Position numbers and translations under genes: made by a program. Source: an uncultured Candidatus Woesearchaeota archaeon (GTDB taxonomy: Archaea > Nanobdellota > Nanobdellia > Woesearchaeales > UBA10107). Taken from it: a stretch of 64,000 nucleotides of DNA. The stretch covers positions 226,281 through 290,280 of the forward strand of contig CAWIGF010000001.1 of NCBI GenBank assembly GCA_963835585.1, given 5' to 3'. Under the pieces are notes generated by a model that worked only from the letters and a program-made list of their open reading frames with translations, was not told the DNA's origin and searched no databases. The first letter of the stretch is position 1, and each line of letters starts with the position of its first letter. This document shows positions 30,160-60,584 of the stretch, one piece after another.

Positions 30160-30266
30160 ATATTATGTTCTCCCATTGTTGTTTAAAAAAGTTGCTAAGA
30201 AATAACTTGCACAAGCAGAAAAATCAAAAGCAAATATTTTTAAACTAATGCTATTCAGCCTTCGGT

Positions 30267-30701: not shown

Positions 30702-30708
30702 TTCTCTC

Positions 30709-31965
30709 TCAACTTACGTTGCTTGGCTGGTATTCTGGTTGCTGTGGAGGCATAGATGGAGATTTTGGAGGACCCCTTCTCAAATAGAAAATCAGGAATA
30801 TATTTACAATTACAAGAACTGCTACAGCAATTATCAACAAAGAGAGAGATGATCCAAATCCTTGATTTGTCCCAGTTACCGCATTACCATTTATGTTTCC
30901 TTTCGTGACGGAAAGCGTGTCAGGATTTACCTGCATTGAGAATGTATTCTCTGAAGCCTTTCCATTGTAGTTCAATGTCGCAAACAAATTATATGCGCCC
31001 GGTTGTAGATTTGTCGTATCCCAATATCCTGTCAGCGTCGCAGATGATAGTGAAGGAACATCAACTGGTAAAGTTTGGAAATTTCCATATACATTGCTTG
31101 CAGTATCCTTTACGACAATAGTTGCAGATACACTATCAATTTGATCTGACCAATGATTGTAGACATTGACGTCCATCCTGTTAATTCTGCCAAGTATAAA
31201 CTGCGGAGAGCTGATAGACTCGATTTCAATGAATTTACCTCCCACAGTAAAAGATGAATGAAGATCTATTGTTTTGTCCCCGTATATGATTGTCGTAAGG
31301 GCGACATACTCTCCTGGAGGAACTGACAAGAGTATCGATTTTGTTTCCTTTCTCTCTATGCCCGGACCTAAAGGATCATAATCAGTATGATAAGTTGCTA
31401 TTGTATCTCCGTTTTGATTGATAATCTGAACATCCGCGGAAGGCGTTACCGTCTCCGATCCTTCATTCGTGAAAGCGTACGTGAGCTCAAGGTCATTCGT
31501 TTCCGGATCATTTGTAGTAAATGTAGCAGTCATGTACTGTCCAGGGATAGGCACATTGATTACTAATTGATGAACAATGGCCACCTCCCCAAATATAGTA
31601 GTCCCTTGAGGCTGAACAGAGGAAGAAGATTGCGCCGTGACTATTTCAACAGTATTTGCGCCAGGCTGCAACACAGCAAAGGGAATGTCAACTGAATACG
31701 AAATCGTTGCCTGGTCGTCAGTTGGACTAAGATGGATTGAACTGTTCGACAGATTTACATAACTTTGCCATTCCCCTCTTACATATATCGTCAAGTCAAG
31801 ATCTTGGTGTTCCGTGTTCATTATTGTAAAACTATAATCGTGTTTGAAGTCAGCAGTAGTATCTGCGACTATTTTTGCCGGCGTAACACCGAATGCATGC
31901 GCTGAGACAAGCGAACTAAGTAAAAATAACACCCACACAAAAATAAATCCAGTTCGCTTCATCAT
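30709..31965 (-). CDS. cell-surface protein with signal peptide and C-terminal TM anchor; paralog of 28478-29449
   Basis: Signal peptide MMKRTGFIFVWVLFLLSSLVSAHA. The C-terminal GFGSSLSLLIIAVAVLVIVNIFLIFYLRRGPP is followed by a Pro/Gln tail. The start overlaps the stop of the upstream giant-gene segment by 4 nt. Confidence 0.65.
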   Translation of the reverse strand: MMKRTGFIFVWVLFLLSSLVSAHAFGVTPAKIVADTTADFKHDYSFTIMNTEHQDLDLTIYVRGEWQSYVNLSNSSIHLSPTDDQATISYSVDIPFAVLQPGANTVEIVTAQSSSSVQPQGTTIFGEVAIVHQLVINVPIPGQYMTATFTTNDPETNDLELTYAFTNEGSETVTPSADVQIINQNGDTIATYHTDYDPLGPGIERKETKSILLSVPPGEYVALTTIIYGDKTIDLHSSFTVGGKFIEIESISSPQFILGRINRMDVNVYNHWSDQIDSVSATIVVKDTASNVYGNFQTLPVDVPSLSSATLTGYWDTTNLQPGAYNLFATLNYNGKASENTFSMQVNPDTLSVTKGNINGNAVTGTNQGFGSSLSLLIIAVAVLVIVNIFLIFYLRRGPPKSPSMPPQQPEYQPSNVS

Positions 31966-34900
31966 GATTCGACTCCATACACAGTTATTGTTGATACCTT
32001 CAGGCCAGGAGGTTCACCATTTGGAACAGTCACATTGAGATCAATTGCTGCAGTATTGTTGTAAGGAGGGAAATTAAGATAAGCAATGACAGACTTTGGA
32101 GTTGATGTCATAGGCGTCCAAGTCATATTTGAATACGTTGTATTAAATGCGTTAAACGTATTACTTGAATTAGTTGTATTGGCTTTGAACATGAATGTTG
32201 TGTTCCCTAATCCTGAAAGGTTAAACAATGTTGTCGCATTGATTGATACATTCACGAGCACGTTCGAAAGGCTTTGAACTATGAACGGAGGTGGATTGTT
32301 GTTTACTGTTGTGTTGGTTTGTCCAGGAATCATGTTTCCGAAATTAGAGAAGTTCTGCGTCAGGTTTATGTTGACATTTACTTGTATTGAGAAGTTGAAT
32401 GTTGATGAGAATGAGCTGTTCAATGTTCCATCGTTTGCCTCAACGTTCCAGAAATATACTCCACACTTATCATTCGTTGACAGAACAGGAGTTGTGTAAT
32501 TTGTCGCGCTCACTCCTGTGAAGAACTGATTTGCACAGAACTGGCTAGTTAGATTGATGTTGTAAGTCAACGTATCACCGTCAGCGTCAGATGATGCATT
32601 CCACAATAATAAAGGCTGAATTGCAGTTAGCGAACTATTGCCATTGCTTGGAAGGACCAACACTGGAGCAGTAGGTGCTGAGTTAAGAACAACCAAATTA
32701 TTAGAGCAAACAGTTGATCCGTCCTGTGTTCCGTCGTTCGGTGTTATGCATGCAGTCCAATTTTGACCTTTTTTCAACATAGACGAGTCCATGATGTATG
32801 ATTGGTTGTTGTAGATGTTCAGGATTTCCTGTGCAGACAATGTACGATTGAAAATCATTACGTTGTCTATTGAGCCGTTGAAATACGTTGGAAGCTGTGA
32901 AGCTATTCCGATTGTGAAATCTCCTGCATATCCTTGCGTGTTTCCCGCCGACATAGAACTCGAGGTTCTTTGTGATCCATCAACCCATATTTGCGCAGTC
33001 CCGTTTGTATTCCAAGTTCCGACTAAAAAGTGCCACTTACTGTCGTTGTAAGCATCTGTTGAGTCAGTTATTCCTCCTTGCGGGTAAAGATACATAGTTA
33101 TATGTCCGGCTTGTATATACAATTCCTTGTCGTGCGTTCCTCCAGTTGGGAGACCATTGGTAAATCCTAATATACTTCCTGAGTTACTTGTTTTAAACCA
33201 CGCCACGAGTGAAAGATTGTATACTACCTCACTCGCAGTTGTGTTTGACCATATGTAACTATTATTTCCATTAAACTGATAATCTCCGAATCCGTTGTAT
33301 CCACCTGTTGAATTCCATGTTGCATTGATTACAGTTCCATTATTTCCATAAGTTGAGTAATCCCTTGTCCATGTCGAGTTGGAGCCACCTTCGAATGGCA
33401 TGTTCAAGACAGCTATTGAAGTTCCATTCAATTTCCAGTCAGTGATGTTGATGACCGTATAACCACCTGGGCTTGTTGAGTTCCAAGATAGAGTTAGATT
33501 TTCAGAGGAGGTATTTGTTCCAAACGTCGAGTTCAAAAGGACATTTCCAACAATGAAGGGAAGCTGACGCGTCGCGTTCACGAAGAATGTGAAAGTCTTG
33601 TTGTTTGCAGGATTGGATCCATTTACAACGACCGAGACTGTGTATTGGCTACCTGTGCTGAATAATTGGCTGAACATGCTTGTGAATCCTGATGTCAACG
33701 TCTGTACAAATGTCAGGATATTGTTGATGAACCAGTTGAACGTGAGCGCTTCTGGATATAATTCAGTTGCGGTTATGTTGAATGTCAAATTGGTTGACGC
33801 TGAAATATTCGTACTTATCGAAACATTGATCTGATTCGTGATGTTCTGCAATCCTCCTGTCGCGTTAGGATAGAATGACGTCAGACTGATGTTGTTCAGG
33901 ACAAGCAAGGAATTGGAGCAGACAGTACTTCCATCTTGCGTTCCATCATTTGGAGTTATGCAGGATGTCCAGTTCTGGTTTGGTTGAAGCATGGATGAGT
34001 CCATAATATATGATTGGTTTTGATATATGTCTTTAATTTCTTGAGGAGATAATGTGCGATTGAAAATCAGAACATTGTCTATTGAGCCGTTGAAGTATAC
34101 ACCATCACCTCTCTTTCCTATATATGCAATTGACATAGAACTCGTTGAAGTCGCATTAGCAACTAAAACACCATTGACATATAGCAGCTGGGTTGTGGCA
34201 TTCTGCACAGCAGCAAGATAAGTCCAAACTCCCGGCGTTGCTGCATACGCACCATTAGCAGCAGAATCAAATTGCCAAGCCCCACTACCACCCTCCTGAA
34301 GCCAAGAGTTTGTTGCGGTTCCATTATTTATTATAGCTGCACCCACTACTATGCTTGTCGGTTTCGCCCATACACTAAGGGTATACACGCTAATAGCGGA
34401 AGGCAAGCTTGCATTCACAAAGCTGCTGATGCCGTTGAATTGATAATCTCCGAATCCGTTATACCCGTCAGTCGAATTCCACGTCGCATTCATAACAGTC
34501 CCATTATTGCCGTATGTGGAATAGTCTCTTGTCCATGTGGAGTTAGAGCCGCCTTCGAAGGGCATGTTCAAGACAGCAATCGAGGTTCCACTTATTCTCC
34601 AGTCAGTTATGTTGATTAAATTAGATGTATATGATGTTGAGTTCCAAGATACAGTAAGATTGTCAGTAGTGAGGTTATTTCCCGATGTAGAATTCAACAA
34701 CACTACGCTGTTCACAATAAATGGAGGTTGTGATGTCAGATTCAAATAGAAACTGAATGTCTGGTTGTTCGCTGAATTGCTTCCATTGACTGTCACCGAG
34801 ACATTATATAATCCAGATGTGCTGAAAAGCTGGCTGAACATGGATGTGAACCCAGATGTCAGTGTCTGCACAAATTTCAGGACATTATTTATGAACCAGC

Positions 34901-35291
34901 TGAATGTGAGTGCTTCTGGATAAGACTCTGTTGCTGTTATGTTGAATGTCAAATTGGTTGTTGCTGAAGTATTCGTATTTATCGAAACATTGATCTGATT
35001 CGTGATGTTCTGCAATCCTCCTGTCGCGTTAGGATAGAATGACGTCAGACTGATGTTGTTCAGGACAAGCAAGGAATTGGAGCAGACAGTACTTCCATCT
35101 TGCGTTCCATCATTTGGAGTTATGCAGGATGTCCAGTTCTGGCCTGGCATGAGTTCCTGCGAAGCCATGACGTAACTTTGATTATGATAAATATTAAGGA
35201 TTTCTTGAGGGGATAATGCTCGGTTGTATATTTGAACATTATCAATGATTCCCTGTATAATTTGACCAACCAGGACTATGATCCATTCCAA
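31962..35291 (-). CDS. C-terminal segment (1109 aa) of the giant LamG-repeat surface protein locus; out of frame with the upstream segments, so a continuation or pseudogene fragment
   Basis: It starts mid-domain (…IDNVQIYNRALSPQEILNIY) with no signal peptide. It carries LamG_3-like repeats and shares identical blocks of 150-400 nt with 36937-37330. Confidence 0.5.
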   Translation of the reverse strand: MEWIIVLVGQIIQGIIDNVQIYNRALSPQEILNIYHNQSYVMASQELMPGQNWTSCITPNDGTQDGSTVCSNSLLVLNNISLTSFYPNATGGLQNITNQINVSINTNTSATTNLTFNITATESYPEALTFSWFINNVLKFVQTLTSGFTSMFSQLFSTSGLYNVSVTVNGSNSANNQTFSFYLNLTSQPPFIVNSVVLLNSTSGNNLTTDNLTVSWNSTSYTSNLINITDWRISGTSIAVLNMPFEGGSNSTWTRDYSTYGNNGTVMNATWNSTDGYNGFGDYQFNGISSFVNASLPSAISVYTLSVWAKPTSIVVGAAIINNGTATNSWLQEGGSGAWQFDSAANGAYAATPGVWTYLAAVQNATTQLLYVNGVLVANATSTSSMSIAYIGKRGDGVYFNGSIDNVLIFNRTLSPQEIKDIYQNQSYIMDSSMLQPNQNWTSCITPNDGTQDGSTVCSNSLLVLNNISLTSFYPNATGGLQNITNQINVSISTNISASTNLTFNITATELYPEALTFNWFINNILTFVQTLTSGFTSMFSQLFSTGSQYTVSVVVNGSNPANNKTFTFFVNATRQLPFIVGNVLLNSTFGTNTSSENLTLSWNSTSPGGYTVINITDWKLNGTSIAVLNMPFEGGSNSTWTRDYSTYGNNGTVINATWNSTGGYNGFGDYQFNGNNSYIWSNTTASEVVYNLSLVAWFKTSNSGSILGFTNGLPTGGTHDKELYIQAGHITMYLYPQGGITDSTDAYNDSKWHFLVGTWNTNGTAQIWVDGSQRTSSSMSAGNTQGYAGDFTIGIASQLPTYFNGSIDNVMIFNRTLSAQEILNIYNNQSYIMDSSMLKKGQNWTACITPNDGTQDGSTVCSNNLVVLNSAPTAPVLVLPSNGNSSLTAIQPLLLWNASSDADGDTLTYNINLTSQFCANQFFTGVSATNYTTPVLSTNDKCGVYFWNVEANDGTLNSSFSSTFNFSIQVNVNINLTQNFSNFGNMIPGQTNTTVNNNPPPFIVQSLSNVLVNVSINATTLFNLSGLGNTTFMFKANTTNSSNTFNAFNTTYSNMTWTPMTSTPKSVIAYLNFPPYNNTAAIDLNVTVPNGEPPGLKVSTITVYGVES

Positions 35292-35734
35292 GATAAAAAG
35301 GATCTATAAGTTATGGAGATTGGTCCATGTCGCTGCAATACTATTGTGCATCGAGCGCTCCGTTGACAAAATGGATATATTTATGTTGTTGTCATGTGAA
35401 GGCAACATGGTACCATATGTCCTGTGTTCAGGTTCGTGCTCCCTGTGAGTTGGGCTCCTGCCGTTTATTCTCACCATAAGAGTATTTGAGGAGCCAGTAT
35501 AGAACCCGAATGAAATCTCTCCCTGCGAACCTGTTAGAGGTCCTATTGAAAAATAGCCCAGACATTGAAATTACTAACTGGCAGAGTATACCCAAGCCAT
35601 GAAAGTAATATTAAGGTTGAGTTAAGTTGAGACTCTGGCTGAATGGTATTGTAATGTATGATGAATTTACATTATGTGAAATAATATGCGCCGTGACCAT
35701 CATATCCTCACTGTCATATTCCATGTCGCATTGA
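35292..35734 (-). pseudogene. decayed copy of one adhesin repeat unit (homologous to 37590-38160) with multiple indels; no open frame
   Basis: DNA is alignable to 37590-38160 at over 90 percent identity, but several 1-3 nt indels interrupt every frame. Confidence 0.55.
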
Positions 35735-37021
35735 CTACAGTTCCATTATTGCCATATGTAGAATAGTCCTCTGTCCAAGTAGAAGTAGAGCCCCTTCAAA
35801 TGGCATGTTTAGAACTGCAATTGAAGTTCCGTTCAATCTCCAGTCTGTTATATTGATTAAATTAGATGTATACGATGTTGAGTTCCAAGATACTGTTAGA
35901 TTTTCATATGTAAAGTTTGTTCCATAAGTTGAATTTAAGATGACATTATTAACAAAAGGTGGTTGTGATGTCAGATTCAAATAAAATGTGAATGTCTTGT
36001 TGTTCGCTGGATTAGAGCCATTTACAATTACCGAAACATTATATGATCCGGATGTGCTGAACAGCTGGCTGAACATGGATGTGAATCCAGATGTTAGTGT
36101 CTGCACAAATTTCAGGATATTGTTGATGAACCAGTTGAACGTGAGCGATTCCGGATAAGATTCAGTTGCAGTTATGTTGAATGTCAAATTTGTTGCTGCT
36201 GATGTGTTTGTATTTATTGAGACATTGATTTGATTCGTGATGTTCTGCAATCCTCCTGTAGCATTAGGATAGAATGATGTCAGGTTGATTTTGTTAAGGA
36301 CGAATAATGAGTTGGAGCAGGCAGTACTTCCATCTTGGGTTCCATCATTTGGAGTTATGCATGCTGTCCAGTTCTGGCCTGGCTGCAGCATTGATGAGTC
36401 CATGATGTATGATTGGTTTTGGTATATGTTGAGGATTTCTTGCGGCGTTAATGCTACATTGTAGATCTGGACACTGTCAATCGAGCCATTGAAGAATTGA
36501 TTTATTCCAGGATCACCAGAACCAATCCATGTATTCGGACCTACGTAAGTTATAGGACCGGATGCAGCAATCGTTCCATTCTGGCGCCCGTTGAGATATA
36601 CAGTCAGTGCTGAACCGTTATATGTCATTGCGATGTAAGACCATGTTTTAATTGGAATAGCTGTATTTCCACTGAGTGATATCCATGCTGAACCATTGTA
36701 GATGGCGGCGCCGATATTCTGCGCCAGTGTATTAAACTCATCACCGAACGCCAAATAAAATGGTGCATTTTTGGAAATGACCGTCCCTATTTGTGTTGTA
36801 GTTGGATATATCCATGCAGAAAGAGTTACGGCATTTGCTAATGTAGGAACTCCCAATATAGGAATTATATAACTATTATACCCATTGAACATATATGCCC
36901 CATGTCCGTCATATCCTCCAGTCGAATTCCACGTCGCATTCATAACAGTCCCATTATTGCCGTATGTGGAATAGTCTCTTGTCCATGTGGAGTTAGAGCC
37001 GCCTTCGAAGGGCATGTTCAA
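35735..37021 (-). CDS. internal segment (428 aa) of the giant surface protein locus, LamG_3-like repeats; separated from the upstream ORF by a short frameshifted stretch
   Basis: The ORF opens on TTG inside a repeat, and homology continues seamlessly from the 3835-aa ORF. Ends in IDSVQIYNVALTPQEILNIY-type motifs. Confidence 0.5.
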   Translation of the reverse strand: MNMPFEGGSNSTWTRDYSTYGNNGTVMNATWNSTGGYDGHGAYMFNGYNSYIIPILGVPTLANAVTLSAWIYPTTTQIGTVISKNAPFYLAFGDEFNTLAQNIGAAIYNGSAWISLSGNTAIPIKTWSYIAMTYNGSALTVYLNGRQNGTIAASGPITYVGPNTWIGSGDPGINQFFNGSIDSVQIYNVALTPQEILNIYQNQSYIMDSSMLQPGQNWTACITPNDGTQDGSTACSNSLFVLNKINLTSFYPNATGGLQNITNQINVSINTNTSAATNLTFNITATESYPESLTFNWFINNILKFVQTLTSGFTSMFSQLFSTSGSYNVSVIVNGSNPANNKTFTFYLNLTSQPPFVNNVILNSTYGTNFTYENLTVSWNSTSYTSNLINITDWRLNGTSIAVLNMPFEGALLLLGQRTILHMAIMEL

Positions 37022-37330
37022 GACAGCAATCGAGGTTCCACTTCATTCTCCAGTCAGTTATGTTGATTAAATTAGATGTATATGATGTTGAGTTCCAAGA
37101 TACAGTAAGATTTTCAGTATGTGAGGTTATGTTCCCGATGTAGAATTCAACAACACTACGCTGTTCACAATAAATGGAGGTTGTGATGTCAGATTCAAAT
37201 AGAAACTGAATGTCTGGTTGTTCGCTGAATTGCTTCCATTGACTGTCACCGAGACATTATATAATCCAGATGTGCTGAAAAGCTGGCTGAACATGGATGT
37301 GAACCCAGATGTCAGTGTCTGCACAAATTT
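36937..37330. repeat. about 390-bp near-identical intragenic repeat (partner 34477-34867) spanning the frame-disrupted junction of the giant gene
   Basis: Direct comparison shows over 95 percent identity. The 37021-37127 stretch carries three 1-nt insertions relative to the 34570-34680 copy. Confidence 0.7.
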
Positions 37331-40300
37331 CGATACTTGATTCACGAACCAAGTGAATGTCAATGGCTCGCTGCTTGACTCTGATGCAGTAACATTGAAT
37401 GTTAGATTTGTGGTTGAGGAGGTGTTTAAGTTGAGCGAAACATTAATTGCACCATTCGTTGATTGAACTAGTCCTGATTGATTTGGATAGAAAGAAGTGT
37501 AATTGAGCATATTTAATGTGAAAACAGAATTTGAACAGACAGTCGATCCGTCTTGGGACATATCATTCGGTGTTATGCATGCTGTCCAGTTCTGGCCTGG
37601 CATGAGTTCCTGCGAAGCCATGACGTAACTTTGATTATGATAAATATTAAGGATTTCTTGAGGGGATAATGCTCGGTTGTATATTTGCGCATTATCTATC
37701 ATTCCTGTAAATGACCAACCAGGACTATGATATATTCCAAGATAAAAAGGATTATTAGTTATGGAGATTGGTCCATTCGCTGCAATACTATTGTCAAGCG
37801 CTCCGTTGACAAATATGGATATATTTATGTTGTTGTATGTGAAGGCAACATGGTACCATTGTCCTGTGTTCAGGTTCGCGCTCCCTGTGAGTTGGGCTCC
37901 TCCGTTTATTCTCACCATAAGAGTATTTGAGGAGCCAGTATAGAACCCGAATGAAATCTCTCCCTGCGAACCTGTTAGAGGTCCTTTGAAAAATAGCCCA
38001 GCATTGAAATTACTAACTGGCAGGTATACCCAAGCCATGCAAGTAATATTAGGTTGAGTTAAGTTGAGACTCTGGCTGAATGGTATTGTAATGTATGATG
38101 AATTTACATTATTGAAATAATATGCGCCGTGACCATCATATCCTCCTGTCATATTCCATGTCGCATTGACTACAGTTCCATTATTGCCGTATGTAGAATA
38201 GTCCTCTGTCCAAGTAGAAGTAGAGCCCCCTTCAAATGGCATGTTTAGAACTGCAATTGAAGTTCCGTTCAATCTCCAGTCTGTTATGTTGACAATGGAA
38301 ACATTATTTGAGTCGGTTGAGTTCCAATAGACAGTCAAGTTCTCAGCAGTCGTATTCGTCCCATATGTTGAATTGAGTAGTATTGATGTTGCATTCGGCG
38401 GTAAGAAGGAAGTTGCATTCAGAAGGAATGTAAATGTTGCATTATATGGCATGGAACCATTCACAACGACAGTCACATTATACAAGCCACTTTTACTGAA
38501 TAAATTGGAGAACATATCTGTAGATCCTGATGCCAATGTCTGGACGAATGTCGATACTTGGTTCACGAACCATGTGAATGTCAATGAAGGCTGACCGCTT
38601 ATTGCCGTAATATTAAAGACTAGATTAGTAAATGGAGAACTGCTTTCTATAATGCTTACATTTACCTGACCAGAAGTAAGACTCTGCAGCTGTCCCGTTG
38701 CATTTGGATAGAAATTGGTTATCTGAACGTTGTTAATATACAGATTGTTTGAACATACAGTTGTTCCGTCACTTGTTCCATCGTTTGGAGTTATGCAGGA
38801 TGTCCAGTTCTGGCCTGGAGAAAGCATTGATGAGTCTATGACATAGGATTGGTTGTTGTATATGTTCAGGATTTCTTGTGGAGACAATGCCTGATTTAAG
38901 ACAAGAACATTATCAATTGTTCCATTGAACCTATTTCCTGTGTTGTTAGCACCTATGTAGAAACTTGCGTTTGCAACTGCAGGCATCGTCGAAAGATTTA
39001 CAGATAATACTGATTTGCCCATGAAGTACGCAGTATAGTTCCAGACGCTTGTTGCTGTTCTTAACCTGGTGACGGCGACAAAATTCCACCTTTTTGCCGA
39101 AGTCACGTTGATGTTCATGAGAGTATAGGTTGTCGCATTCATGTATCCTGCAATTATCCCACACGTGCTGTTCATGAATATACTTAATTCAGGATGATAC
39201 AAAACTCTTGGATAATTCGAAACAGTATTATTGCAGTTATTTGCATAGAACCAAGCCATAATTGTGTAATTAATCGTTTCGTTGAGATTCATCGTCAATG
39301 TTGTGTTGATAAATCCAGTTCCATTAAACATGTAAGCGCCGAATCCGTTGTATCCACCTGTTGAATTCCATGTTGCATTGATTACAGTTCCATTATTTCC
39401 ATAAGTTGAGTAATCCCTTGTCCATGTCGAGTTGGAGCCACCTTCGAATGGCATGTTCAAGACAGCTATTGAAGTTCCATTCAATTTCCAGTCAGTGATG
39501 TTGATGACTTTTGCGTTAGTTCCAGGCGTGACGCTCCAATAAGTGGTTAAATTTTCAAATGATGTATTATATCCATATGTTGAATTGAGCAGTACGAAGC
39601 TTATGGAAGGAGGCAGATATGTTGCATTGACAAAGAATTTGAAAGTGACATTGTTCGCTGAATTGCTTCCATTGACTGTCACCGAGACATTATATAATCC
39701 AGATTTGCTGAAAAGCTGGCTGAACATGGATGTGAACCCAGATGCTAATGTTTGTACAAATGTTAATACTTGATTGATGAACCATCTGAATGTCAACGGC
39801 TCGTTGCTTGATTCTGAAACAGTAACATTGAATGTTAAATTATTTACTGTTGATGAGGCTCCAGTAATGCTTACATTGATTTGACCAGAGGAAATATTCT
39901 GAACCTGTCCCGTTGCATTCGGGTAGAATGATATGTATTTGATTCTGTTGAGCGTGAAGACTGTGTTGGAACACACCGTACTTCCATCTGTTGTTCCGTC
40001 ATTTGGAGTTATGCAGGCTGTCCAATTCTGGTTTGGCTGAAGTTCTTGCGAAGCCATAATATATGATTGATTATTATAAAGATTGAGGATTTCTTGGGAA
40101 CTCAATGATTTATTGAACACCAATAAGTTGTCGATTGATCCATTAAAGTAACCTCCGTTGCCTCCTCCTAATGCTGCGTAAGGTACTTGACCACCAGTCA
40201 ACGTGTTGCCAGAGTCATACCTGGAAGTATTGTATACTCCATTCACGTACCAGGATATGTTAAGATTATTGTACACAAAAGTAAGCATTACCCAGTTGGT

Positions 40301-43300
40301 TGATATTGGGCTTGTTGTAGCGAGTGGACCCGAAGGATTGTATCCACCATTCTCCAGCGTAGAGGCGTCACATATTCCTGGAGCCTCGATATTGCATCGG
40401 AACAGAACATCATCGTCCTCAAACACAACTTCGTTAGTAATTGCTGCCACCTGATTCTCTTTTATCCATGTACTTATAGTAAATCCGTTCACTATGCCAA
40501 CAACACTCGGTATCAACATATATGCATTAATTCCGTTGAACATATATGCTCCATACCCATTATATCCTCCAGTCGCATTCCAGATAGTATTATAGCCTGT
40601 TCCATTATTACCCCATGTTGAATAATCCCTTGTCCAAGTTGAGTTAGAACCTCCTTCGAATGGCATGTTCAATAAGGCAATTGAATTTCCATTCATACGC
40701 CAGTCTGTTATATTTGTTATATTACGGTTAAGAGGGCTTGAGGAATTATAATAAACAGTAAGATTTTCGTCTGTGTAGTTTGTTCCGAATGTTGAATTCA
40801 AGGTTATATTATTTGCCACTGGCAAACCACTTTTAATTACTACATTATTGCTACATACGGTTGCTCCATCTCGAATTTCGTCAGTTGGAGTTATGCAGGC
40901 TGTCCAATTCTGACCCACTTGCAGCATTGATGAGTCTATGACATAGGATTGGTTGTTGTATATGTTCAGGATTTCTTGCGGAGACAACGCTTGTCTGTAG
41001 ATTTGGACATTATCAATTTGCCCATTTAAATAATCATAGAAATCGTATCTTGTCCCTATTAGAAGAGGATAAGTGTTTGGAACTGGAGCTCCACCCTGTT
41101 GCGCAAAACTTCCTGCCGGAAGACCATTAAGATAGAATGAAACAAGACCACTACCTATTGTAACTACCGCATAATTCCATGAATTTGAAGTCATCGATGT
41201 CGGTGAACTATAGATTGAATAATCGGCACTATTAGTACCATTTTGATAGTAGAGTTGCAATGCTCCTGTTGATGGATTTGGGAAGAACTCAAAGTTTCCT
41301 GCTGAGCTCCCAGGAGAATCTTTAGCCATTATGAAATAATAAGTATTCAAATCATTCAGATAAATCCATGCGGATAGCGTGAAGTTGTCCGTCAGGTTGA
41401 GACTCTGGCTGTTTGAAACATTGATATAACCCCCGCTGAAAGAATAACCTCCGTAACCATCATATCCGCCAGTCGCACTCCATACTAAGTTGTTCAAAGT
41501 TCCGTTATTACCCCATGTTGAATAATCCCTTGTCCAAGTTGAGTTAGAACCTCCTTCGAATGGCATATTTAACGCCATTGTTGAATTGCCGCTGATTCTC
41601 CAGTCTATTATATTGGCAAGAGAATATCCAATAGGGCTTGTTGAATTCCATGAGAAAAGCAAATTCTCAAGAGTGGTGTTAAATCCATATGTTGAATTCA
41701 ACAGTGTTGAGTTTGCGTAAGGAGGTTGATAATTCGTTGCATTTACAAAGAATCTGAACGTCTGGTTTGTTGCCGGATTCGAGGCATTTACCACAACAGT
41801 TACATTATACAATCCAGGCGTACTGAACAAGTTAAAGAATGTGCTTATGAAGCTGGATGTCAATGTCTGCACAAATGTAAGGACTTGGTTCACGAACCAG
41901 CTGAATGTCAATGCCGGCTGATTTGTATTCGCAGTCATGACAAATGTAGCATTTGCTGAAGTAGCGGGCTCTACGCTGCTTGAATTGGTTTGCATATATG
42001 AAATATTCTGGGTTTGACCTGTCTTATTCGGATAGAAACTAATGAGTTGTATGTTGTTGATGTAAATATTATTGGAACAGACAGTATTTCCTTCAAGAGT
42101 GCCGTCATCGGGAGTTACACATGCAGTCCAGTTATCCCCTGGACTGAGCTCCGTGTTCGCCAAAATATATGGCTTATTATTGTACAGATTGTAGATTTCC
42201 TGCGGAGACAATGCTCGGTTGTAGATTTGGACATCGGAAATTGAACCGTTGAAACCATATCCATATCCAGGACCTCCATATCTGCCTATGTCCAACATAC
42301 CTGGAGTTCCTGATGTTATCATACCACTAGAATCATAATTTCCATTCACATATATAGTTAAAATATTATTACTATTTGTAGTGACTGCGACAAAATACCA
42401 CTGAGTTTTATTAATCGGAGTTTGCCCATATATATAAGTAATAGATCCTGCACCTCCAACGACATTTAATTGAGTGTCCCCAGTATTGCCACCATAAAGG
42501 CTTACCCAATAATTATTTCCACCAAAATCGAGCATATATTGATCCGAAGTGGGATCGGTACTTTGTGGGTAAAACCAGAATGTTCTGGTATTAACACTGC
42601 CCATCACCAAATTACTAACGTTGATGTATTCGTCAACATCAGCAGCGTTCCCTGAACCATCAAAATAATATGCTCCGAATCCATTGTATCCTCCAGTTGA
42701 ATTCCATATGGCATTATTGACGGTTCCATTGTTGCCGTATGTAGAATAGTCCTCTGTCCATGTTGAGTTAGAGCCTACTTCGAATGGCATGTTGAGGATT
42801 GCAATGCTTGTTCCGTTGTTTCTCCAGTCTGTGATGTTCTGGACAGGAAGTTTAGCCAGATCAGTCTCATTGTAGTAAGCAGTGATGTTCTCGAAAGTTG
42901 TATTTGTTCTCTTACTGGAGTTGATGAAAACAGAATTCACAATAGGATTTACGTCAGTCACGTTAAGATTGAATGTGAATGAATTGTTCGTATATGAATT
43001 ATTAACTACAACGGTAATGTTGTACTGGCCAGTCGCAGCGAATAACTGAGAAAACATGCTCGTCAATCCTGATGTCAAGGTCTGGACTAATGCAAGTACT
43101 TGGTTCACGAACCAGCTGAACGTGAGAGGGCCGCTTATGGAATAGTCTATGTAATTTCCTGTAGCGTTGAATGTCAGATTTGCTACAGATACATTCTCCG
43201 CTATCGAAATGCTAGTCGTCGTATAGGGAATATTCTGAGTCTGCATAGAACTATTCGGATATATGGCAGAAATGTAAGGTGCATCTAGTATCAATATTTT

Positions 43301-46300
43301 ATTCGAACAAAGCGTAGGACCATCGACCTTGTCATCGTTTGGAGTCACACATGCAGTCCAGTTGTCACTTGCATTAAGCTCCTTGTTTGACATTATATAA
43401 CTTTGACTATCGTTGATGTTCAAAATTTCTTGAGGAGATAATGCTCTGTTGTAGATTTGGACATTGTCGATTGTACCATTAAAGTAATTACCCAGTCCGA
43501 TGCTACCGATATATAGATTATCAGTACCACTCGGCAATGATCCACTAGCTCCTATGGTTTCCGTATTATTGATTCCATCAATATATAATGTTGCGTCTCC
43601 ATTATTATATACTGCTACAAAATAATGCCAGGTGTTATATGAAGGAGCATATGTACTAAGTGTGTCATAAGAGACTGCATTTGTCCATCTGAAGAACACG
43701 AATCCTTCCTCTGCACCATAAGTTGGTCCAAGCAACTGCGCATAGTAAGATGTAGGATATTTGTCTATGAACACAGGATAATCCGTATTTGGTGCAGGAT
43801 ATTTAGCCCACCAAGAAACGGACATTCGTGAAGCGCCATCAAAAACACCTTTGTTAGACATGTTGATATAACTAATTGCCCCGTCAAATTGGTATGCTCC
43901 CTGCCCATTATACCCGCAACTAGAACACCATGTTGCGTTCACAACCGTTCCATTATTGCCGTATGTGGAGTAATCCCTCGTCCAATTGGAAGTAGAACCA
44001 CCTTCAAATGGCATATTCAGGACAGCTATTGAGATATTGTTTAATCTCCAGTCTGTGATGTTGACAATAGGGTCCATATCAGGATCTGATAAATTATAAT
44101 ACACTGTAAGATTCTCTGTTGTGAGATTCGTGCCGAACGTGGAATTTATGAAAACGGATGTTATGTTAGGAGGGGTGTTGTTTGTGATAAAGTATGTGGA
44201 CCAGTGCGTTACCTTGAAAGTTACGAAGATATTATTAGGATTTCCAGAGCATGCGGGATTGAAGCATGAAGTTCCTTCGCAAGTCGTATAATTTTGAAGC
44301 CTTGCCAATGTCACGTTTTTTGTGAAGTTGTTGAGCATCTTTATTGAATAATTCTGGCAACTGAAATCCTTGCTGTTCAGGGTCAGAAAGTTTGTTGAAG
44401 TTATATTCAAAGGATTCTCCGCGCTTGAGTTTAATGAAGCTATTGAATCGTTCAGATAGATGTTTTGTATGCTTGTAAAGTTAATAGGGCCGTGGAAAGA
44501 AAGAGTATTGTTCCTTTCGGAAAGGTTCAGATAGTCATTATTTCCCCCGTTTATTTTAACGTATGAATCTAACGTGTTGTTTGACCAGAAATTATTGAAG
44601 ATGACATTACCAGTTGTCCCAGCAAGAAAAATAATTCCATACGTGTTATTAAATAAACTATTGTTCCCTATAGAGGAGCCAGTGGCCCCACCATCTAAAG
44701 CAATTCCTCCAGTTTGGTTGTACATTATATTGTTAAAAATAATCGCAGTAGTGCCGCCAACTAGCTCAATTCCATAAGGGCTATTACTTGCAATCGTATT
44801 GAATGTTGCATTAACGACAGCTCCAGCAGATGTATAAATGCCATCTTGCATATTAGACACTATAGTATTGTTGAACAGTGGAATTTCACCGCTGCCACCT
44901 GAAAAGTATACCCCATATTCCGAGCCATTCGCGATTGTATTTTGTGTGATTATATTACCAGGATAACCTCCTAGTCCTGCTTCAAGATCAAATCCTTCAA
45001 CAGAAACATTGTTTATTACATTGTTTGAAATAATTGTATAAACTGCAGGAGGGTGTATGTCTATCCCTATACCTTGAGAGAAAGAATTGGTTATTTTGTT
45101 ACTTGTGATTGTTGTCTGGTTAGCTGCCACGTAAATGCTCGTGTTGCATGAAAAGAACGTATTGTTTGCGACTGTAAGGTTAATTGTTGGATAGACTATA
45201 TTCAGACAATCAACTGAGTTGCTGGAAAATGTATTGTTGAGAATATTATCATTGAAGCTTGGATTGGCAGTTCCACCACCACCGAAATATATTCCAGTTG
45301 AATCGTTGATAAAATTATTTTGAAGGATATACGAGCTGTTTACCGAATAGAACTGCATGGCCGTGCTTGCATTTTCTATAGTGCAGCCAATTATGGTTAT
45401 ATTGTTGCTGTTGGAAGAAGACAGATAAGTAAATCCTGCTCCGTTGATTATTGTGTTGTAACAGTTGATATTTACATTGCTTGTGTTATATATCATTGAT
45501 GTGTTCAGGTAATATGTTCCAGGGCATAATGTGATGTTTCCTGTTAGATTAAGTCCGTTCGTTGGTACAGTACATGTTAATACTTGGAATGTGAATGTCT
45601 GGTTGTTTGCCGGATTCGAACCATTTACTACAGCAGTAACGTTGCTCAGACCTATAAGGCTTGATATTGCCTCTGTAAATGAGCTTGTAAATGCCGATGT
45701 CAAAGTCTGGACAAATGTCGATATTTGGTTCACGAACCATGTGAATGTCAACGGCTCGTAGCTTGATTCTGTAGCGGTTACATTGAACGTCATGCTTCCG
45801 GAACTGTTGTAGCTCGCGTTAATGAACACAGTATTTACTCCTGGTGTCGTATTCTGCGTCTGACCCGTAGTGGCATTCGGAGCATAAGATATTATCTGTA
45901 TGTGGTTGAGCATTAAGACTTGGTTGGATATGTTAGTCACTCCGTTAACACCATTTTCTGGAGTTACCGCGACAGTCCAGTTTTCTCCCGGTCTTGTGTT
46001 GTTTGCAATAATGACATTCCTGTTGGATGCGTTGAACATCAAAATTTGCTGAGGGGTGAATGTACGGTTATATATTCCTACGAAGTCCATCTGTCCTATG
46101 AATCCCATTCCAATCAATATAGGATTTCCACTTGAGATATTTACCCAAGATATTGTAGAAGTATTGACTAACACTCCGTTGACATAAAGCTCCATTCTAT
46201 TTCCATCAAATATGTTTACAAATACATCTGACCAATTATTCAAGGATATTGCAGTGCTTGAATTAGCTTTATACAAAAATGTTGATGCAACTGATGATGC

Positions 46301-48634
46301 ATTCATTGTGAAATAAGGCCTTAAACTTCCATCAAAAGCAATTATCCAACCAAGAGTACCTGCCGAAGTAGCTTTTTGCATAATTGTTGTAGCTACAGAA
46401 GCAGTAGGAGCAACCACAACTTCAATAGATACATTTCCTGTAAGATTTAAATAATTCTTATCCGGAACTGATATTGTTCCAGCGCTGGTGAAATTGTAAA
46501 CACAAGGCTGACCTCCCAATCCTGATTTGAGAGATACAGCTCCAGAGACTGATGCAGTATCATTGAAGGTGGAATAATCAGTCGCGTTACTGCCTGAAGT
46601 TGGGAGATATGTCATTGCCAAATTAAGGAAATCCATGGATTGATTATTTATACGCCAATCAGTAACATTATCAATTGTCGAGCCGCCTACGTTGAAGTAA
46701 ACAGTAAGATTCTCGTCAGTATAATTAGTCCCAAGTGTTGAGTTCAAGAATATACTAAGAACAGAAATTGGTGTTGGTAATGTCGTGAAATTATAGATTC
46801 CAGACGTGTTGCATGCTCCTGCAGGAGTACATGATGTCACATTATAGAAATAAATAGTGTTGTTCACCAGTCCTGACACAGAAACATTGTGCACAAGTCC
46901 ATTGTCATTCACGGATATGTTAAATCTCAGCAGATTTGAGCTTTGGTTTCCGTATAACAACGTTGTGTTTGAATTGAGTGAGGTTGTCCAGTTTATCATG
47001 ACGCTCTGGTTTGTTATGCTGTAATTCACAACTCCGGAAATTCCAGGAACCATTGCAGTTCCTGATATGTTGACGTTATCAAGATAGCATCCCCTTCCTA
47101 CGGTAGTGCTAGGAGTGCAATTGAAAGCCAAACGGAAACTTGGATTGTTGCTTGAGTTGCCTGCAGTAAGGAGATAATTATAATTAGTGTAATTAGGAAT
47201 ATTTGTCGTGTTCATCAACAATCCCCAGGCAGTTCCATTCCACCAATTTGCTCCGAAAAATGAGACCACTCCTGTCGTGTTGGCATAGAACGAAATGTTA
47301 ATGTTCTGATAGTAAGCAGTGCTCATATTCAGGTAGAGATATGCTATAGTAGTTCCTGATGAATTGTCCCTTGCCTCATATGTTCCTGCGTAAGGATCTG
47401 TTTTGTTTACTTCCCAACCACTTGATATTGTCCAGGCATTTGACGAGAATAATCCTGTCTCGAAACCATCGAAGAAAGTTCCATTGTTCGCTGTCAGATT
47501 ATTTGGGGCATCATGGATGTAGTCGAATTGTATGAATGGATTCGCATCCGATTCGTTAGGGTCTTGGATCTTGAAGTCAAAAGTATCTTCTGGTTGGTCA
47601 AGGCCGCTAATGCTTACATATTGCTGAGATCCTGAAACAATATCGCTCGTTCCGACCTTCTGATCAGTTCCTGCAACGTATACGTCGAAGTATGCTGAAG
47701 TGTTCGAGCGGGCAACGAAATCAATTACATTGTCATTTGTAAGATTCATCTCATATGTGACCCTGACAAACTCATTTTGGTAGATTGGATCGCTCCAATT
47801 GTTGTCGATTGCCTCTATCTCTGGATATATATCAGAAATGAACGTGTAATTCTCATCCAAATGCTGTGCGTCTATAGCTGCAATAATCTCAGCAAAAGCA
47901 GGGTCATCTTGGGTAAGGGTGAAATTATATTCCTGCCCGGGAATTATCTTCTCGAAAAATTCCCATGTCCCATTGCAAATTCTATTGTCAAAATCCCATT
48001 CCCTGCATTTGTACAATTGGTTGCCAACTGCTATTGCTGTTAATGTTGCATTTGTAAAGTTGACCTGTGTAGGATCAACCGCATATACTTGCTTCCAATC
48101 GGTGTCTTTGTTTAGTCTGGCAATTGAATTGGGAGTGTCATCAACCCTGAGCTTAGAAAGCGTACCTTTATCGACACCATGGAACTCTATACCATGGATT
48201 GGTGTTTTTTTAAGTGTTACAAAAGCAGTTACTTCTGTGTTGTTTCCTATTGTCTCGTTCGAGAAACTAACATTCGCTGAAATCGTGTTGTTATTTGCAT
48301 CAACGACAAAAAATCCTGTTTGAGCTGGCTCCTTTACAAACATGAAAAACCCAAATAAAATAATAATCGCAACCAGACTGACTTTTGCAAAATTAAGATG
48401 AGTTTCCATCTCTATTCTCTTTTTCAGGGAAACTGCCTTTTCCAGATAGCTATTTATTTCATCTTTGAATTCGTGCTCGGATTTACTCTTCAGGATATTT
48501 TGTTTCAGCAGACTATGCTCGAGCTTGCTTATTTTTTTGTTGCTAAGAAGGGAATCTATATAGTCAAGTTTCTTTTCCATGTCCAAGCAAGCTCTTATGC
48601 GTGCATTTATTTCAGCGATATATTCCTTATCCAC
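37127..48634 (-). CDS. giant cell-surface adhesin-like protein (3835 aa): N-terminal cytoplasmic coiled-coil, single TM, parallel beta-helix region, then about 12 or more LamG_3 (concanavalin-A-like) plus Ig-like repeat modules
   Basis: TM helix LVAIIILFGFFMFV at about residue 85. PbH1-like repeats (NNFINDSTGIYFGGGG..., NNTFSSN...). The recurring module ITDWRLNGTSIAVLNMPFEGGSNSTWTRDYSTYGNNGTV...IDNVQIYNRALSPQEILNIY matches the Laminin_G_3 C-terminal signature. Extreme N-x-S/T sequon density. Confidence 0.8.
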   Translation of the reverse strand: MDKEYIAEINARIRACLDMEKKLDYIDSLLSNKKISKLEHSLLKQNILKSKSEHEFKDEINSYLEKAVSLKKRIEMETHLNFAKVSLVAIIILFGFFMFVKEPAQTGFFVVDANNNTISANVSFSNETIGNNTEVTAFVTLKKTPIHGIEFHGVDKGTLSKLRVDDTPNSIARLNKDTDWKQVYAVDPTQVNFTNATLTAIAVGNQLYKCREWDFDNRICNGTWEFFEKIIPGQEYNFTLTQDDPAFAEIIAAIDAQHLDENYTFISDIYPEIEAIDNNWSDPIYQNEFVRVTYEMNLTNDNVIDFVARSNTSAYFDVYVAGTDQKVGTSDIVSGSQQYVSISGLDQPEDTFDFKIQDPNESDANPFIQFDYIHDAPNNLTANNGTFFDGFETGLFSSNAWTISSGWEVNKTDPYAGTYEARDNSSGTTIAYLYLNMSTAYYQNINISFYANTTGVVSFFGANWWNGTAWGLLMNTTNIPNYTNYNYLLTAGNSSNNPSFRLAFNCTPSTTVGRGCYLDNVNISGTAMVPGISGVVNYSITNQSVMINWTTSLNSNTTLLYGNQSSNLLRFNISVNDNGLVHNVSVSGLVNNTIYFYNVTSCTPAGACNTSGIYNFTTLPTPISVLSIFLNSTLGTNYTDENLTVYFNVGGSTIDNVTDWRINNQSMDFLNLAMTYLPTSGSNATDYSTFNDTASVSGAVSLKSGLGGQPCVYNFTSAGTISVPDKNYLNLTGNVSIEVVVAPTASVATTIMQKATSAGTLGWIIAFDGSLRPYFTMNASSVASTFLYKANSSTAISLNNWSDVFVNIFDGNRMELYVNGVLVNTSTISWVNISSGNPILIGMGFIGQMDFVGIYNRTFTPQQILMFNASNRNVIIANNTRPGENWTVAVTPENGVNGVTNISNQVLMLNHIQIISYAPNATTGQTQNTTPGVNTVFINASYNSSGSMTFNVTATESSYEPLTFTWFVNQISTFVQTLTSAFTSSFTEAISSLIGLSNVTAVVNGSNPANNQTFTFQVLTCTVPTNGLNLTGNITLCPGTYYLNTSMIYNTSNVNINCYNTIINGAGFTYLSSSNSNNITIIGCTIENASTAMQFYSVNSSYILQNNFINDSTGIYFGGGGTANPSFNDNILNNTFSSNSVDCLNIVYPTINLTVANNTFFSCNTSIYVAANQTTITSNKITNSFSQGIGIDIHPPAVYTIISNNVINNVSVEGFDLEAGLGGYPGNIITQNTIANGSEYGVYFSGGSGEIPLFNNTIVSNMQDGIYTSAGAVVNATFNTIASNSPYGIELVGGTTAIIFNNIMYNQTGGIALDGGATGSSIGNNSLFNNTYGIIFLAGTTGNVIFNNFWSNNTLDSYVKINGGNNDYLNLSERNNTLSFHGPINFTSIQNIYLNDSIASLNSSAENPLNITSTNFLTLNSKDFSCQNYSIKMLNNFTKNVTLARLQNYTTCEGTSCFNPACSGNPNNIFVTFKVTHWSTYFITNNTPPNITSVFINSTFGTNLTTENLTVYYNLSDPDMDPIVNITDWRLNNISIAVLNMPFEGGSTSNWTRDYSTYGNNGTVVNATWCSSCGYNGQGAYQFDGAISYINMSNKGVFDGASRMSVSWWAKYPAPNTDYPVFIDKYPTSYYAQLLGPTYGAEEGFVFFRWTNAVSYDTLSTYAPSYNTWHYFVAVYNNGDATLYIDGINNTETIGASGSLPSGTDNLYIGSIGLGNYFNGTIDNVQIYNRALSPQEILNINDSQSYIMSNKELNASDNWTACVTPNDDKVDGPTLCSNKILILDAPYISAIYPNSSMQTQNIPYTTTSISIAENVSVANLTFNATGNYIDYSISGPLTFSWFVNQVLALVQTLTSGLTSMFSQLFAATGQYNITVVVNNSYTNNSFTFNLNVTDVNPIVNSVFINSSKRTNTTFENITAYYNETDLAKLPVQNITDWRNNGTSIAILNMPFEVGSNSTWTEDYSTYGNNGTVNNAIWNSTGGYNGFGAYYFDGSGNAADVDEYINVSNLVMGSVNTRTFWFYPQSTDPTSDQYMLDFGGNNYWVSLYGGNTGDTQLNVVGGAGSITYIYGQTPINKTQWYFVAVTTNSNNILTIYVNGNYDSSGMITSGTPGMLDIGRYGGPGYGYGFNGSISDVQIYNRALSPQEIYNLYNNKPYILANTELSPGDNWTACVTPDDGTLEGNTVCSNNIYINNIQLISFYPNKTGQTQNISYMQTNSSSVEPATSANATFVMTANTNQPALTFSWFVNQVLTFVQTLTSSFISTFFNLFSTPGLYNVTVVVNASNPATNQTFRFFVNATNYQPPYANSTLLNSTYGFNTTLENLLFSWNSTSPIGYSLANIIDWRISGNSTMALNMPFEGGSNSTWTRDYSTWGNNGTLNNLVWSATGGYDGYGGYSFSGGYINVSNSQSLNLTDNFTLSAWIYLNDLNTYYFIMAKDSPGSSAGNFEFFPNPSTGALQLYYQNGTNSADYSIYSSPTSMTSNSWNYAVVTIGSGLVSFYLNGLPAGSFAQQGGAPVPNTYPLLIGTRYDFYDYLNGQIDNVQIYRQALSPQEILNIYNNQSYVIDSSMLQVGQNWTACITPTDEIRDGATVCSNNVVIKSGLPVANNITLNSTFGTNYTDENLTVYYNSSSPLNRNITNITDWRMNGNSIALLNMPFEGGSNSTWTRDYSTWGNNGTGYNTIWNATGGYNGYGAYMFNGINAYMLIPSVVGIVNGFTISTWIKENQVAAITNEVVFEDDDVLFRCNIEAPGICDASTLENGGYNPSGPLATTSPISTNWVMLTFVYNNLNISWYVNGVYNTSRYDSGNTLTGGQVPYAALGGGNGGYFNGSIDNLLVFNKSLSSQEILNLYNNQSYIMASQELQPNQNWTACITPNDGTTDGSTVCSNTVFTLNRIKYISFYPNATGQVQNISSGQINVSITGASSTVNNLTFNVTVSESSNEPLTFRWFINQVLTFVQTLASGFTSMFSQLFSKSGLYNVSVTVNGSNSANNVTFKFFVNATYLPPSISFVLLNSTYGYNTSFENLTTYWSVTPGTNAKVINITDWKLNGTSIAVLNMPFEGGSNSTWTRDYSTYGNNGTVINATWNSTGGYNGFGAYMFNGTGFINTTLTMNLNETINYTIMAWFYANNCNNTVSNYPRVLYHPELSIFMNSTCGIIAGYMNATTYTLMNINVTSAKRWNFVAVTRLRTATSVWNYTAYFMGKSVLSVNLSTMPAVANASFYIGANNTGNRFNGTIDNVLVLNQALSPQEILNIYNNQSYVIDSSMLSPGQNWTSCITPNDGTSDGTTVCSNNLYINNVQITNFYPNATGQLQSLTSGQVNVSIIESSSPFTNLVFNITAISGQPSLTFTWFVNQVSTFVQTLASGSTDMFSNLFSKSGLYNVTVVVNGSMPYNATFTFLLNATSFLPPNATSILLNSTYGTNTTAENLTVYWNSTDSNNVSIVNITDWRLNGTSIAVLNMPFEGGSTSTWTEDYSTYGNNGTVVNATWNMTGGYDGHGAYYFNNVNSSYITIPFSQSLNLTQPNITCMAWVYLPVSNFNAGLFFKGPLTGSQGEISFGFYTGSSNTLMVRINGGAQLTGSANLNTGQWYHVAFTYNNINISIFVNGALDNSIAANGPISITNNPFYLGIYHSPGWSFTGMIDNAQIYNRALSPQEILNIYHNQSYVMASQELMPGQNWTACITPNDMSQDGSTVCSNSVFTLNMLNYTSFYPNQSGLVQSTNGAINVSLNLNTSSTTNLTFNVTASESSSEPLTFTWFVNQVSKFVQTLTSGFTSMFSQLFSTSGLYNVSVTVNGSNSANNQTFSFYLNLTSQPPFIVNSVVLLNSTSGT

Positions 48635-51556: not shown

Positions 51557-51635
51557 AGCCTTTCTTTTTTATTTTTAATTTAGAATAAAAAATAGCGTGT
51601 AGCCCAAAATCTGGCTTTTCAAAAGATTTATTAAA

Positions 51636-53945: not shown

Positions 53946-53982
53946 TAAGGTATATAATAAACAAAAAAGGATGTAAATAAAA

Positions 53983-55557
53983 ATGGAGAAAAAGACAATC
54001 TGTGCAATTTCGATATTATTCATCATAATTCTTATAGGCACGCACGCACTGAATCTTGGAACTGTTAAGGGATATGCACTTAACATTAGTGGAGGAATAT
54101 TGCCTGGCTCGAGCGTCTCGCTTTCTGTCGTCGGATGCACAGGAACAGGATGCACCGCATCGGGAACAACTGATGCGAACGGGTTTTACATAAGGTCCAA
54201 TCTGAATTTAATCCCAGGAAATACAATATTAGGAACAGCTACCAATGGTAATGCGTTTGGGTCTGCTTCAACGACAGCTACGGGAACGGGTAGCACTGGT
54301 GTTGGAACGCTCAACATAACTCTTTGCGCTCCGCCCCAGCAACCTGCACTAAATAATGTCTCGGATACTCATAATAATTCATTAATCACGATGTCATGGA
54401 CCACATACAAGGCAGGATCGCAATACGATGAGTTCGTGTTTGACAGCCAAACATCAAATACAACAGCATTGTCACCTCAAACCCAGAAAAACGTTTCCTA
54501 CCAATACCATACTTGGCAAGTGAGAACATGCAACACGCTCTGCTGCTCAAGTTATTCAACTGACACTTTCAATGTCTATAACAATCCACCTCCGCCACCT
54601 ACTTTGACAATCCAGGGAAGTACAACAGATACTACCATTTCATTCTCATGGGCGAACTACTCAGACCCGCAAAATGAAGCAACAAATAATGACTTTGATT
54701 CTGCTACTGATGACAGCTTCGGAACTACCGTCTTCACAGATTTAAACGCGAATGCTCCTGAAACAGTCAGCAATCTCACTACATTCACGCTATATTATTG
54801 GAGAGTGCGAACATGCGATGACAAGGGATCTTGCAGCAGCTATGCAAACAGCTCTTTCTTCGTATACGAGAGTATATGTACGGGAAATAATACGATTTTC
54901 GTAAATAATACCGTATACAATAACACAATCATATATAATAATACGGTCATAGAGAATAATACAGTAGTGAATAATACGATTTTCGTAAATAATACCATAA
55001 CCACCATAATAGGAGGGAGGGGAAGAACAGAATACGTAACTATCAACAACACACAAATATGCTTGCCGAACTGGCAATGCACCATATGGAACTCCTGCAT
55101 GAATGGTTTAAGCACACGAACATGCACTGATGCCAACAACTGTGCATCACCATATCCACAAACATTCGAATCATGTTCAAACGGAATTTCTCCACCACCT
55201 AGTCAGTCAGCTAGCCCACAAGAAATTTCTCAATCCCAAGTAAATGAAACTCCCTCAGGCCCTGGTCTGATTACTACGACAAGAAGCATATTTGAGAGAA
55301 TAACAATAATACCTTGGATATTGTTAGCGATTATATTGCTTTTGCTTGGATACATCTATTACCAGAACAGCACATATGTTTCACGTGAGAAGAAAGTCGA
55401 CAAATCACTTAGTGATTATATCAGGGTGGCGCAGGATAATGGTTTCTCTGATGAACAAATACAGACAAAACTAACGAATGCAGGATTTGCAAGAGAAGAA
55501 ATCGACTTCGTATTCAAAAAAAGAAAATCAAAGAATTCCGTACCAAATAAACAATAA
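53983..55557 (+). CDS. large secreted protein with FN3-like domains, NNT sequon array, C-terminal TM and cytoplasmic SHOCT-like tail
   Basis: Signal peptide. A repeated 'sw/yW...VRTC' domain pair. NNTxx pentapeptide repeats. C-terminal TM (IIPWILLAIILLLLGYIYY) followed by DYIRVAQDNGFSDEQIQTKLTNAGFAREEIDFVFKK. Confidence 0.5.
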   Translation: MEKKTICAISILFIIILIGTHALNLGTVKGYALNISGGILPGSSVSLSVVGCTGTGCTASGTTDANGFYIRSNLNLIPGNTILGTATNGNAFGSASTTATGTGSTGVGTLNITLCAPPQQPALNNVSDTHNNSLITMSWTTYKAGSQYDEFVFDSQTSNTTALSPQTQKNVSYQYHTWQVRTCNTLCCSSYSTDTFNVYNNPPPPPTLTIQGSTTDTTISFSWANYSDPQNEATNNDFDSATDDSFGTTVFTDLNANAPETVSNLTTFTLYYWRVRTCDDKGSCSSYANSSFFVYESICTGNNTIFVNNTVYNNTIIYNNTVIENNTVVNNTIFVNNTITTIIGGRGRTEYVTINNTQICLPNWQCTIWNSCMNGLSTRTCTDANNCASPYPQTFESCSNGISPPPSQSASPQEISQSQVNETPSGPGLITTTRSIFERITIIPWILLAIILLLLGYIYYQNSTYVSREKKVDKSLSDYIRVAQDNGFSDEQIQTKLTNAGFAREEIDFVFKKRKSKNSVPNKQ

Positions 55558-56949: not shown

Positions 56950-56982
56950 GATTGCTTAAAGAACTAACGAATGGCCTGTTAT

Positions 56983-57138: not shown

Positions 57139-57212
57139 GAACAAATAGCCGTATCTTTTCTTATTTAAGTGTTGCCATAATCTTTATTAATGAATCAGGA
57201 GTAATAAGCACT

Positions 57213-59692: not shown

Positions 59693-59774
59693 ACGCAAAT
59701 AAAAATGAGAAATAGTTATATACCTTTCTATCGGCGGCAATAGGTTTATAATAGCATATATCTTTGATTTTTTC

Positions 59775-60478: not shown

Positions 60479-60584
60479 ACTTCTTCATTTTCTTTTTTTT
60501 ATTAATTTCTCAGAAAGAGTTTACGAGGTTGCCAAGAAGGTTCCGAAGGGAAAGATTTCTACGTACAAGGAAATAGGGAGGATA

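Follow-up and report, generated by a model that had tools for sequence, protein, structure and literature searches.

The stretch of DNA analyzed here (the window, 64,000 nt) carries on its minus strand a gene for a giant LamG-repeat surface protein. The deposited sequence divides this gene into three ORFs of 3835, 428, and 1109 aa (fragments 1 to 3; Table 1), each of which matches the Laminin_G_3 profile (PF13385) above its gathering score: fragment 1 with 419 bits over 7 stretches, fragment 2 with 83.5 bits, and fragment 3 with 122.5 bits over 2 stretches. Fragment 3 corresponds to the 1068-aa protein P0010 of the deposited record; it is open throughout and contains no lesions. At its N terminus, the giant protein has ~85 cytoplasmic residues followed by a single hydrophobic transmembrane (TM) helix, VSLVAIIILFGFFMFV. 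Hence, the protein would be anchored at its N terminus, with the repeats outside the cell.

Fibrillarin, Nop5, a family-B DNA polymerase, and SecD/F are encoded among the neighboring genes, and the ValRS of the host is closest to those of Woesearchaeota MAGs, the best of which is 83% identical. These neighbors and the ValRS place the host among the DPANN archaea (Woesearchaeota). Lying among the Woesearchaeota matches to the window's ValRS, at 50 to 72% identity, were also those of L035 (OZ246410.1, a 774-kb chromosome) and of several CAZ/CAY loci; these records bear the title "uncultured Methanosarcinales archaeon," a taxonomic label that looks doubtful. Immediately downstream of the giant gene, two paralogous minus-strand genes (28478-29449 and 30709-31965; 79% nucleotide identity over ~690 nt) flank M50-peptidase-like and FKBP genes. 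Neither paralogue has a Pfam match, and the 418-aa paralogue product has a signal-like segment at its N terminus and a TM segment at its C terminus. Further away, at 10285-10374 on the minus strand, ARAGORN called a tRNA-Ser with anticodon ACT. Rfam returned a standard tRNA with an insertion of ~19 nt after the anticodon loop, and that loop reads CUGAAG; given this reading, the locus most likely encodes an archaeal tRNA-Phe(GAA) with an intron.

Table 1. Features of the giant gene, its repeated patches and error zones, and one homopolymer run elsewhere in the window
Feature	Position	Strand	Remarks
Giant LamG-repeat surface-protein gene	31962..48634	minus	about 11 Laminin_G_3 units with PKD-like spacers
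ORF fragment 1	37127..48634	minus	3835 aa; 7 Laminin_G_3 matches; ends ...LLNSTSGT-stop
ORF fragment 2	35735..37021	minus	428 aa; 1 Laminin_G_3 match; same frame as fragment 1
ORF fragment 3	31962..35291	minus	1109 aa; 2 Laminin_G_3 matches; frame differs from fragment 1
Patch Q, error-bearing copy	36919..37331	minus	413 nt; same as 34469-34878 except for changes at 37044-37131
Patch Q, clean twin	34469..34878	minus	in frame within fragment 3
Error zone 1	37044..37131	minus	3 single-base insertions and 1 substitution
Patch P, error-bearing copy ("decayed" LamG unit)	35130..35851	minus	722 nt
Patch P, clean twin	37583..38287	minus	in frame within fragment 1
Error zone 2	35235..35794	minus	16 insertion events (19 nt), 2 single-base deletions, and about 11 substitutions
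T-run in DNA_binding_1 (MGMT/Ogt-type) gene	60493..60500 (gene 60451-60812)	plus	T8 in the window vs T9 in Logan

Both interruptions of the gene fall within repeated sequence. Two related 1.4-kb blocks lie at 38292-36905 and 35856-34455, and their similarity is a mosaic: a near-identical patch of about 720 nt (P), then ~255 nt at ~65% identity, and then a second near-identical patch of about 410 nt (Q). We catalogued exact matches of at least 25 nt over the whole window, and P and Q were the sole exact repeats longer than 200 nt. One copy in each pair is dirty, the downstream copy in P and the upstream copy in Q, and the other is clean; in both P and Q, the lesions are restricted to the interior of the patch. 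Two shorter exact patches are present, 33286-33455/39339-39508 (170 nt) and 33815-33978/34979-35142 (164 nt). They are embedded between LamG units that are otherwise 70 to 80% identical, and both copies of each are clean. These shorter patches point to a continuing gene conversion that homogenizes parts of the LamG array, and P and Q themselves look like recent gene-conversion tracts between neighboring LamG units 2.44 kb apart.

At the first junction, two claims of the initial annotation were borne out. The ORF layout places the end of the 3835-aa frame, LNSTSGT-stop, at 37127 as it had stated, and comparison with the clean twin (34878-34469) revealed the three single-nucleotide insertions that it had described as jointly restoring the frame: C at 37131, A at 37120, and G at 37044. 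A single substitution (A/C at 37113) accompanies them. The inserted C at 37131 creates the TAA stop codon that ends fragment 1. The three insertions sum to +3, and hence the 428-aa ORF returns to the original frame; the stretch out of frame spans 29 codons and contains several stops in every frame. This zone sits 200 nt and 125 nt inside the edges of patch Q. The junction pattern was found only twice within the window, against 0 expected, and the junction similarities are not due to chance.

The second junction is far more heavily altered. Here, 35855-35128 is a copy of 38291-37581 that differs from it by 19 inserted nt, 2 deleted nt, and 12 mismatches, and the altered zone sits 61 nt and 105 nt inside the edges of patch P. 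The net gain of 17 nt accounts for the change of frame into the 1109-aa ORF. The initial annotation had recognized a decayed LamG unit surviving as an indel-laden DNA copy, which agrees with our alignment; the span that it gave for the source, 37590-38160, is slightly too narrow.

When the indels alone were reversed (22 inserted nt taken out and 2 nt put in, with all substitutions kept), the three fragments became one ORF running from 48634 to 31962. This repaired ORF is 16,653 nt long and encodes 5550 aa with no internal stop. The repaired "decayed" LamG unit scored 107.4 bits against Laminin_G_3, covering profile positions 3-150 of 151, and its twin scored 104 bits. Judged from the sequence, the giant gene is probably one intact 5,550-codon frame that is neither truncated nor recoded.

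What kind of change produced the interruptions? All of the frame-breaking changes are indels, with 22 nt inserted versus 2 nt deleted. Across both zones there are 21 indel events and about 13 substitutions. The indel events all fall within 648 nt, with none in the remaining ~16 kb of the giant gene, and the 4.6 kb of ORF downstream of the first stop has no further lesion. Under an assumption of neutral decay across the 5.17 kb that follow the first stop, the chance that all 18 zone 2 events would fall within the 560 nt of that zone is ~4e-18. The two zones have an equal overall divergence of about 4.5%, which suggests that a single process generated both. Among the 17 single-base insertions, only 2 extend a homopolymer, and 9 split an identical doublet (27% expected; p = 0.02). 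The inserted base can be read as a synonymous variant in 4 of the 17, versus 32% expected at random; hence, the insertions disregard codon structure. In natural decay, substitutions predominate and indels occur mainly in runs. The giant gene displays neither the spread of lesions nor the excess of substitutions over indels by which a natural frameshift pseudogene is recognized, and it contains no nonsense substitutions and no deletions longer than 1 nt.

The accuracy of the deposited contig outside the giant gene could be gauged from Logan k-mer contigs of run ERR10755942 (L001-L004). These contigs come from the same organism as the window; they span 1715-29191, 29845-31452, and 51513-64000, and none enters the giant gene. 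Since Logan and the deposit may rest on one set of reads, their independence is one of method only. Over 1715-29191 and 29845-31452 they are 100% identical to the window, and over 51513-64000 they differ from it by only one dinucleotide swap and one T8/T9 indel. In all, 41,573 nt of unique sequence were compared, and this swap and this indel are the only differences. Indels are ~1300 times as dense in the two zones as in this Logan-checked unique sequence.

The one indel lies in the DNA_binding_1 gene, a small DNA-repair gene. With the T9 run of Logan, the gene is intact and encodes 120 aa; with the T8 run of the window, it falls into pieces of 41 aa and 75 aa. Hence, the deposited contig holds at least one frame-breaking indel that is missing from the k-mer assembly, and at the T8 run (60493-60500) the deposited contig probably gives the wrong homopolymer length. 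The dinucleotide swap, TC at window positions 54700-54701 versus CT in L002, is located within a 524-aa ORF (53983..55557; P0006 versus P0007) and may be either a strain variant or a consensus error. Elsewhere in the window, a 1272-aa plus-strand gene (4202-8020) has T2SSE (faint), Intein_splicing, and LAGLIDADG_3 matches, which indicate an ATPase with an intein. Its last 40 nt are shared with the next ORF (7981..10263). We considered the two as a split gene and rejected this: both products are identical in Logan, and these are genuinely separate calls with no frameshift.

Because the Logan contigs end wherever a 31-mer is repeated, the giant gene is in pieces there. L001 and L003, for example, terminate exactly 29 nt into a common 34-mer (29162-29195 and 31423-31456), the site at which the contigs break. 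Of ten predicted unitig products, representing both hypotheses, none was found in Logan, where cut gene products are not indexed; the positive control among the ten, a known cut product of L003, was absent as well. Logan look-ups of P0001, P0010, and two other ORFs of the window gave no match.

The same locus in related genomes, which had been put forward as a point of comparison, did not offer one: no comparable gene was found among relatives. A scan of genome contigs with the 418-aa downstream neighbor found no relative. A contig scan with ValRS found relatives that are at most 83% identical, with flanks that do not reach a comparable gene. When the repaired middle region (1400 aa) was used as the query of a protein search, only the window's own fragment and matches of at most 45% identity were returned. 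With no relative above 45% identity, no orthologue was available in which to compare the locus. A DNA pattern tolerating both versions of the junctions had no match in the JGI metagenomes.

We consider it likely that both disruptions are artefacts of building the deposited 339,840-bp contig and are not features of the organism's DNA. In P and in Q alike, the errors occupy a single instance of an exact repeat and the other instance is clean, and the same contig combines accurate unique sequence with errors of a sequencing type (indels). A real lesion at the two zones is, by our estimate, unlikely. Perhaps the gene has been truncated or pseudogenized very recently, so that translation ends at 37127 and the protein now lacks its distal 1715 aa, which hold four LamG units and the C-terminal tail? 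The deposited sequence itself shows indels, giant repeat-rich surface genes are often inactivated or recombined intragenically, and P and Q testify to active recombination between the units of this gene. However, a true truncation would have to confine ~21 indels, with few substitutions, to 648 nt while 4.6 kb of untranslated sequence stayed perfectly open. Its lesions would have to coincide exactly with the interiors of two exact repeats of >400 nt, in one copy each, and the restoration of the frame by the three junction 1 insertions would be coincidental. It would also require a 22:2 insertion bias outside homopolymers, which to our knowledge fits no known spontaneous spectrum. We therefore regard a real truncation as improbable. 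Real indels could also have come from a localized, insertion-biased mutagenesis acting on freshly gene-converted tracts, with error-prone synthesis during templated repair between the LamG units of a DPANN archaeon as a possible source. If true, such mutagenesis would rapidly truncate or remodel the giant surface protein; we give it only a very faint chance.

A fault of the consensus could take another form, in which mixed templates were merged into a chimera and a site with XX in one allele and XY in the other was written XYX, giving pseudo-insertions. Real substitutions would then separate the affected copies from their twins, or coexisting strains would differ. The excess of split doublets is in keeping with such merging, insertions would be expected to dominate if both alleles were kept, and the sample is a metagenome in which the swap at 54700 hints at strain variation. 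However, the implied substitutions lack the synonymous enrichment that real divergence of paralogues or strains under selection should show, and a simple merge is at odds with the multi-base insertions (CGA and AA) and with the two deletions, which leaves the chimera a slim prospect. A programmed feature at the junctions, whether a phase-variable contingency switch or translational recoding (frameshifting or bypass), is barely credible. The one point in its favor is that the junction 1 insertions sum to +3, with the frame resuming after 29 codons. Against it, there is no homopolymer or simple-sequence tract at 37131, 37120, or 37044 (TRF on 34300-38400 gave just three trivial 2-copy rows) and no invertible or repeat-flanked switch. 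The stops in all frames at junction 1 leave no open path for a ribosome, and three shifts would be needed at junction 1 and about 18 more in 560 nt at junction 2. Absent tracts, stops in all frames, and the need for ~20 shifts effectively exclude phase variation and recoding.

Three scenarios had been left standing in the initial annotation. Assembly error is the one clearly favored by the indel-only lesions, their position in repeat interiors, and the restored ORF, while phase variation or recoding finds no support. Pseudogenization of the C-terminal part is made improbable by lesions that are indel-only and lie in repeat interiors and by the undamaged 4.6 kb downstream. The idea that the assembly had "collapsed" does not quite fit the locus, since both copies are present and one was merely left uncorrected. 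Under the favored reading of an assembly error, the suggested expression of a protein lacking the final 1500 aa (1715 aa in our recount) is probably wrong: removing the indels restores the 5550-aa ORF.

As to how an assembly could produce these errors, we infer the following specific route of assembly and polishing. One copy in each patch pair would carry the correct sequence, and the interior of the other would keep a noisy, insertion-rich sequence with roughly 4 to 6% error, as expected of a long-read draft left raw or given only light correction, or of a gap filled with long reads. This noise would have been left uncorrected because accurate reads, whichever copy they came from, would map preferentially to the clean one. 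Correction would have reached just the outer ~60 to 200 nt of the patch, through reads anchored in the unique flanks. Alternatively, long reads may have been used to fill a gap at the second occurrence of a collapsed short-read repeat. Typical nanopore error matches such an insertion-dominated profile less well than does PacBio CLR-type noise or an artefact of the consensus, which makes the exact technical route uncertain. The excess of split doublets and the strong insertion bias are not fully accounted for. The true gene would encode a single 5550-aa LamG-repeat surface protein, anchored in the membrane at its N terminus. The deposited record would thus split one Woesearchaeota surface protein of 5550 aa into three genes, in a manner that can be mistaken for pseudogenization, phase variation, or recoding. 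Its correction bears on how giant DPANN surface proteins are catalogued and on the number of pseudogenes counted in long-read MAGs.

The locus can be compared with three known systems. Like frameshift-decay pseudogenes, it has a long ORF with frameshift interruptions and recognizable homology further downstream; unlike them, its lesions are indel-only, insertion-biased, and hyper-clustered in repeat interiors, with none elsewhere. The closer likeness is to errors in polished assemblies. In repeats, reads prefer the error-free instance, so that the errors of the other instance are left uncovered and unpolished (Wick and Holt, 2022; PMC8812927). In the bacterial assemblies described with Polypolish, as in the giant gene, one copy of the repeat is error free and the other carries frameshifting indels; the errors lie beyond the reach of flank-anchored reads, and the unique sequence is essentially perfect (PMC8812927). 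The published repeats are usually dispersed (IS elements and rRNA operons), and their errors are sparse and of the homopolymer type (PMC8812927), whereas the giant gene has intragenic patches of 0.4 to 0.7 kb with a dense (about 4 to 6%), insertion-biased residual error. That density and bias suggest nearly raw long-read or gap-fill sequence.

Once repaired, the product resembles the LamG giants that are common among DPANN archaea. Like those of Woesearchaeota, Nanoarchaeota, and Micrarchaeota, it has many Laminin_G_3 units, PKD-like spacers, an extreme length, and a sequence rich in N-glycosylation sequons. Database searches matched it best to LamG proteins from Nanoarchaeota, Woesearchaeota, Micrarchaeota, and other archaeal MAGs. 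With its 5550 aa, the repaired product exceeds all of the matches listed, which reach at most 2431 aa and many of which are partial.
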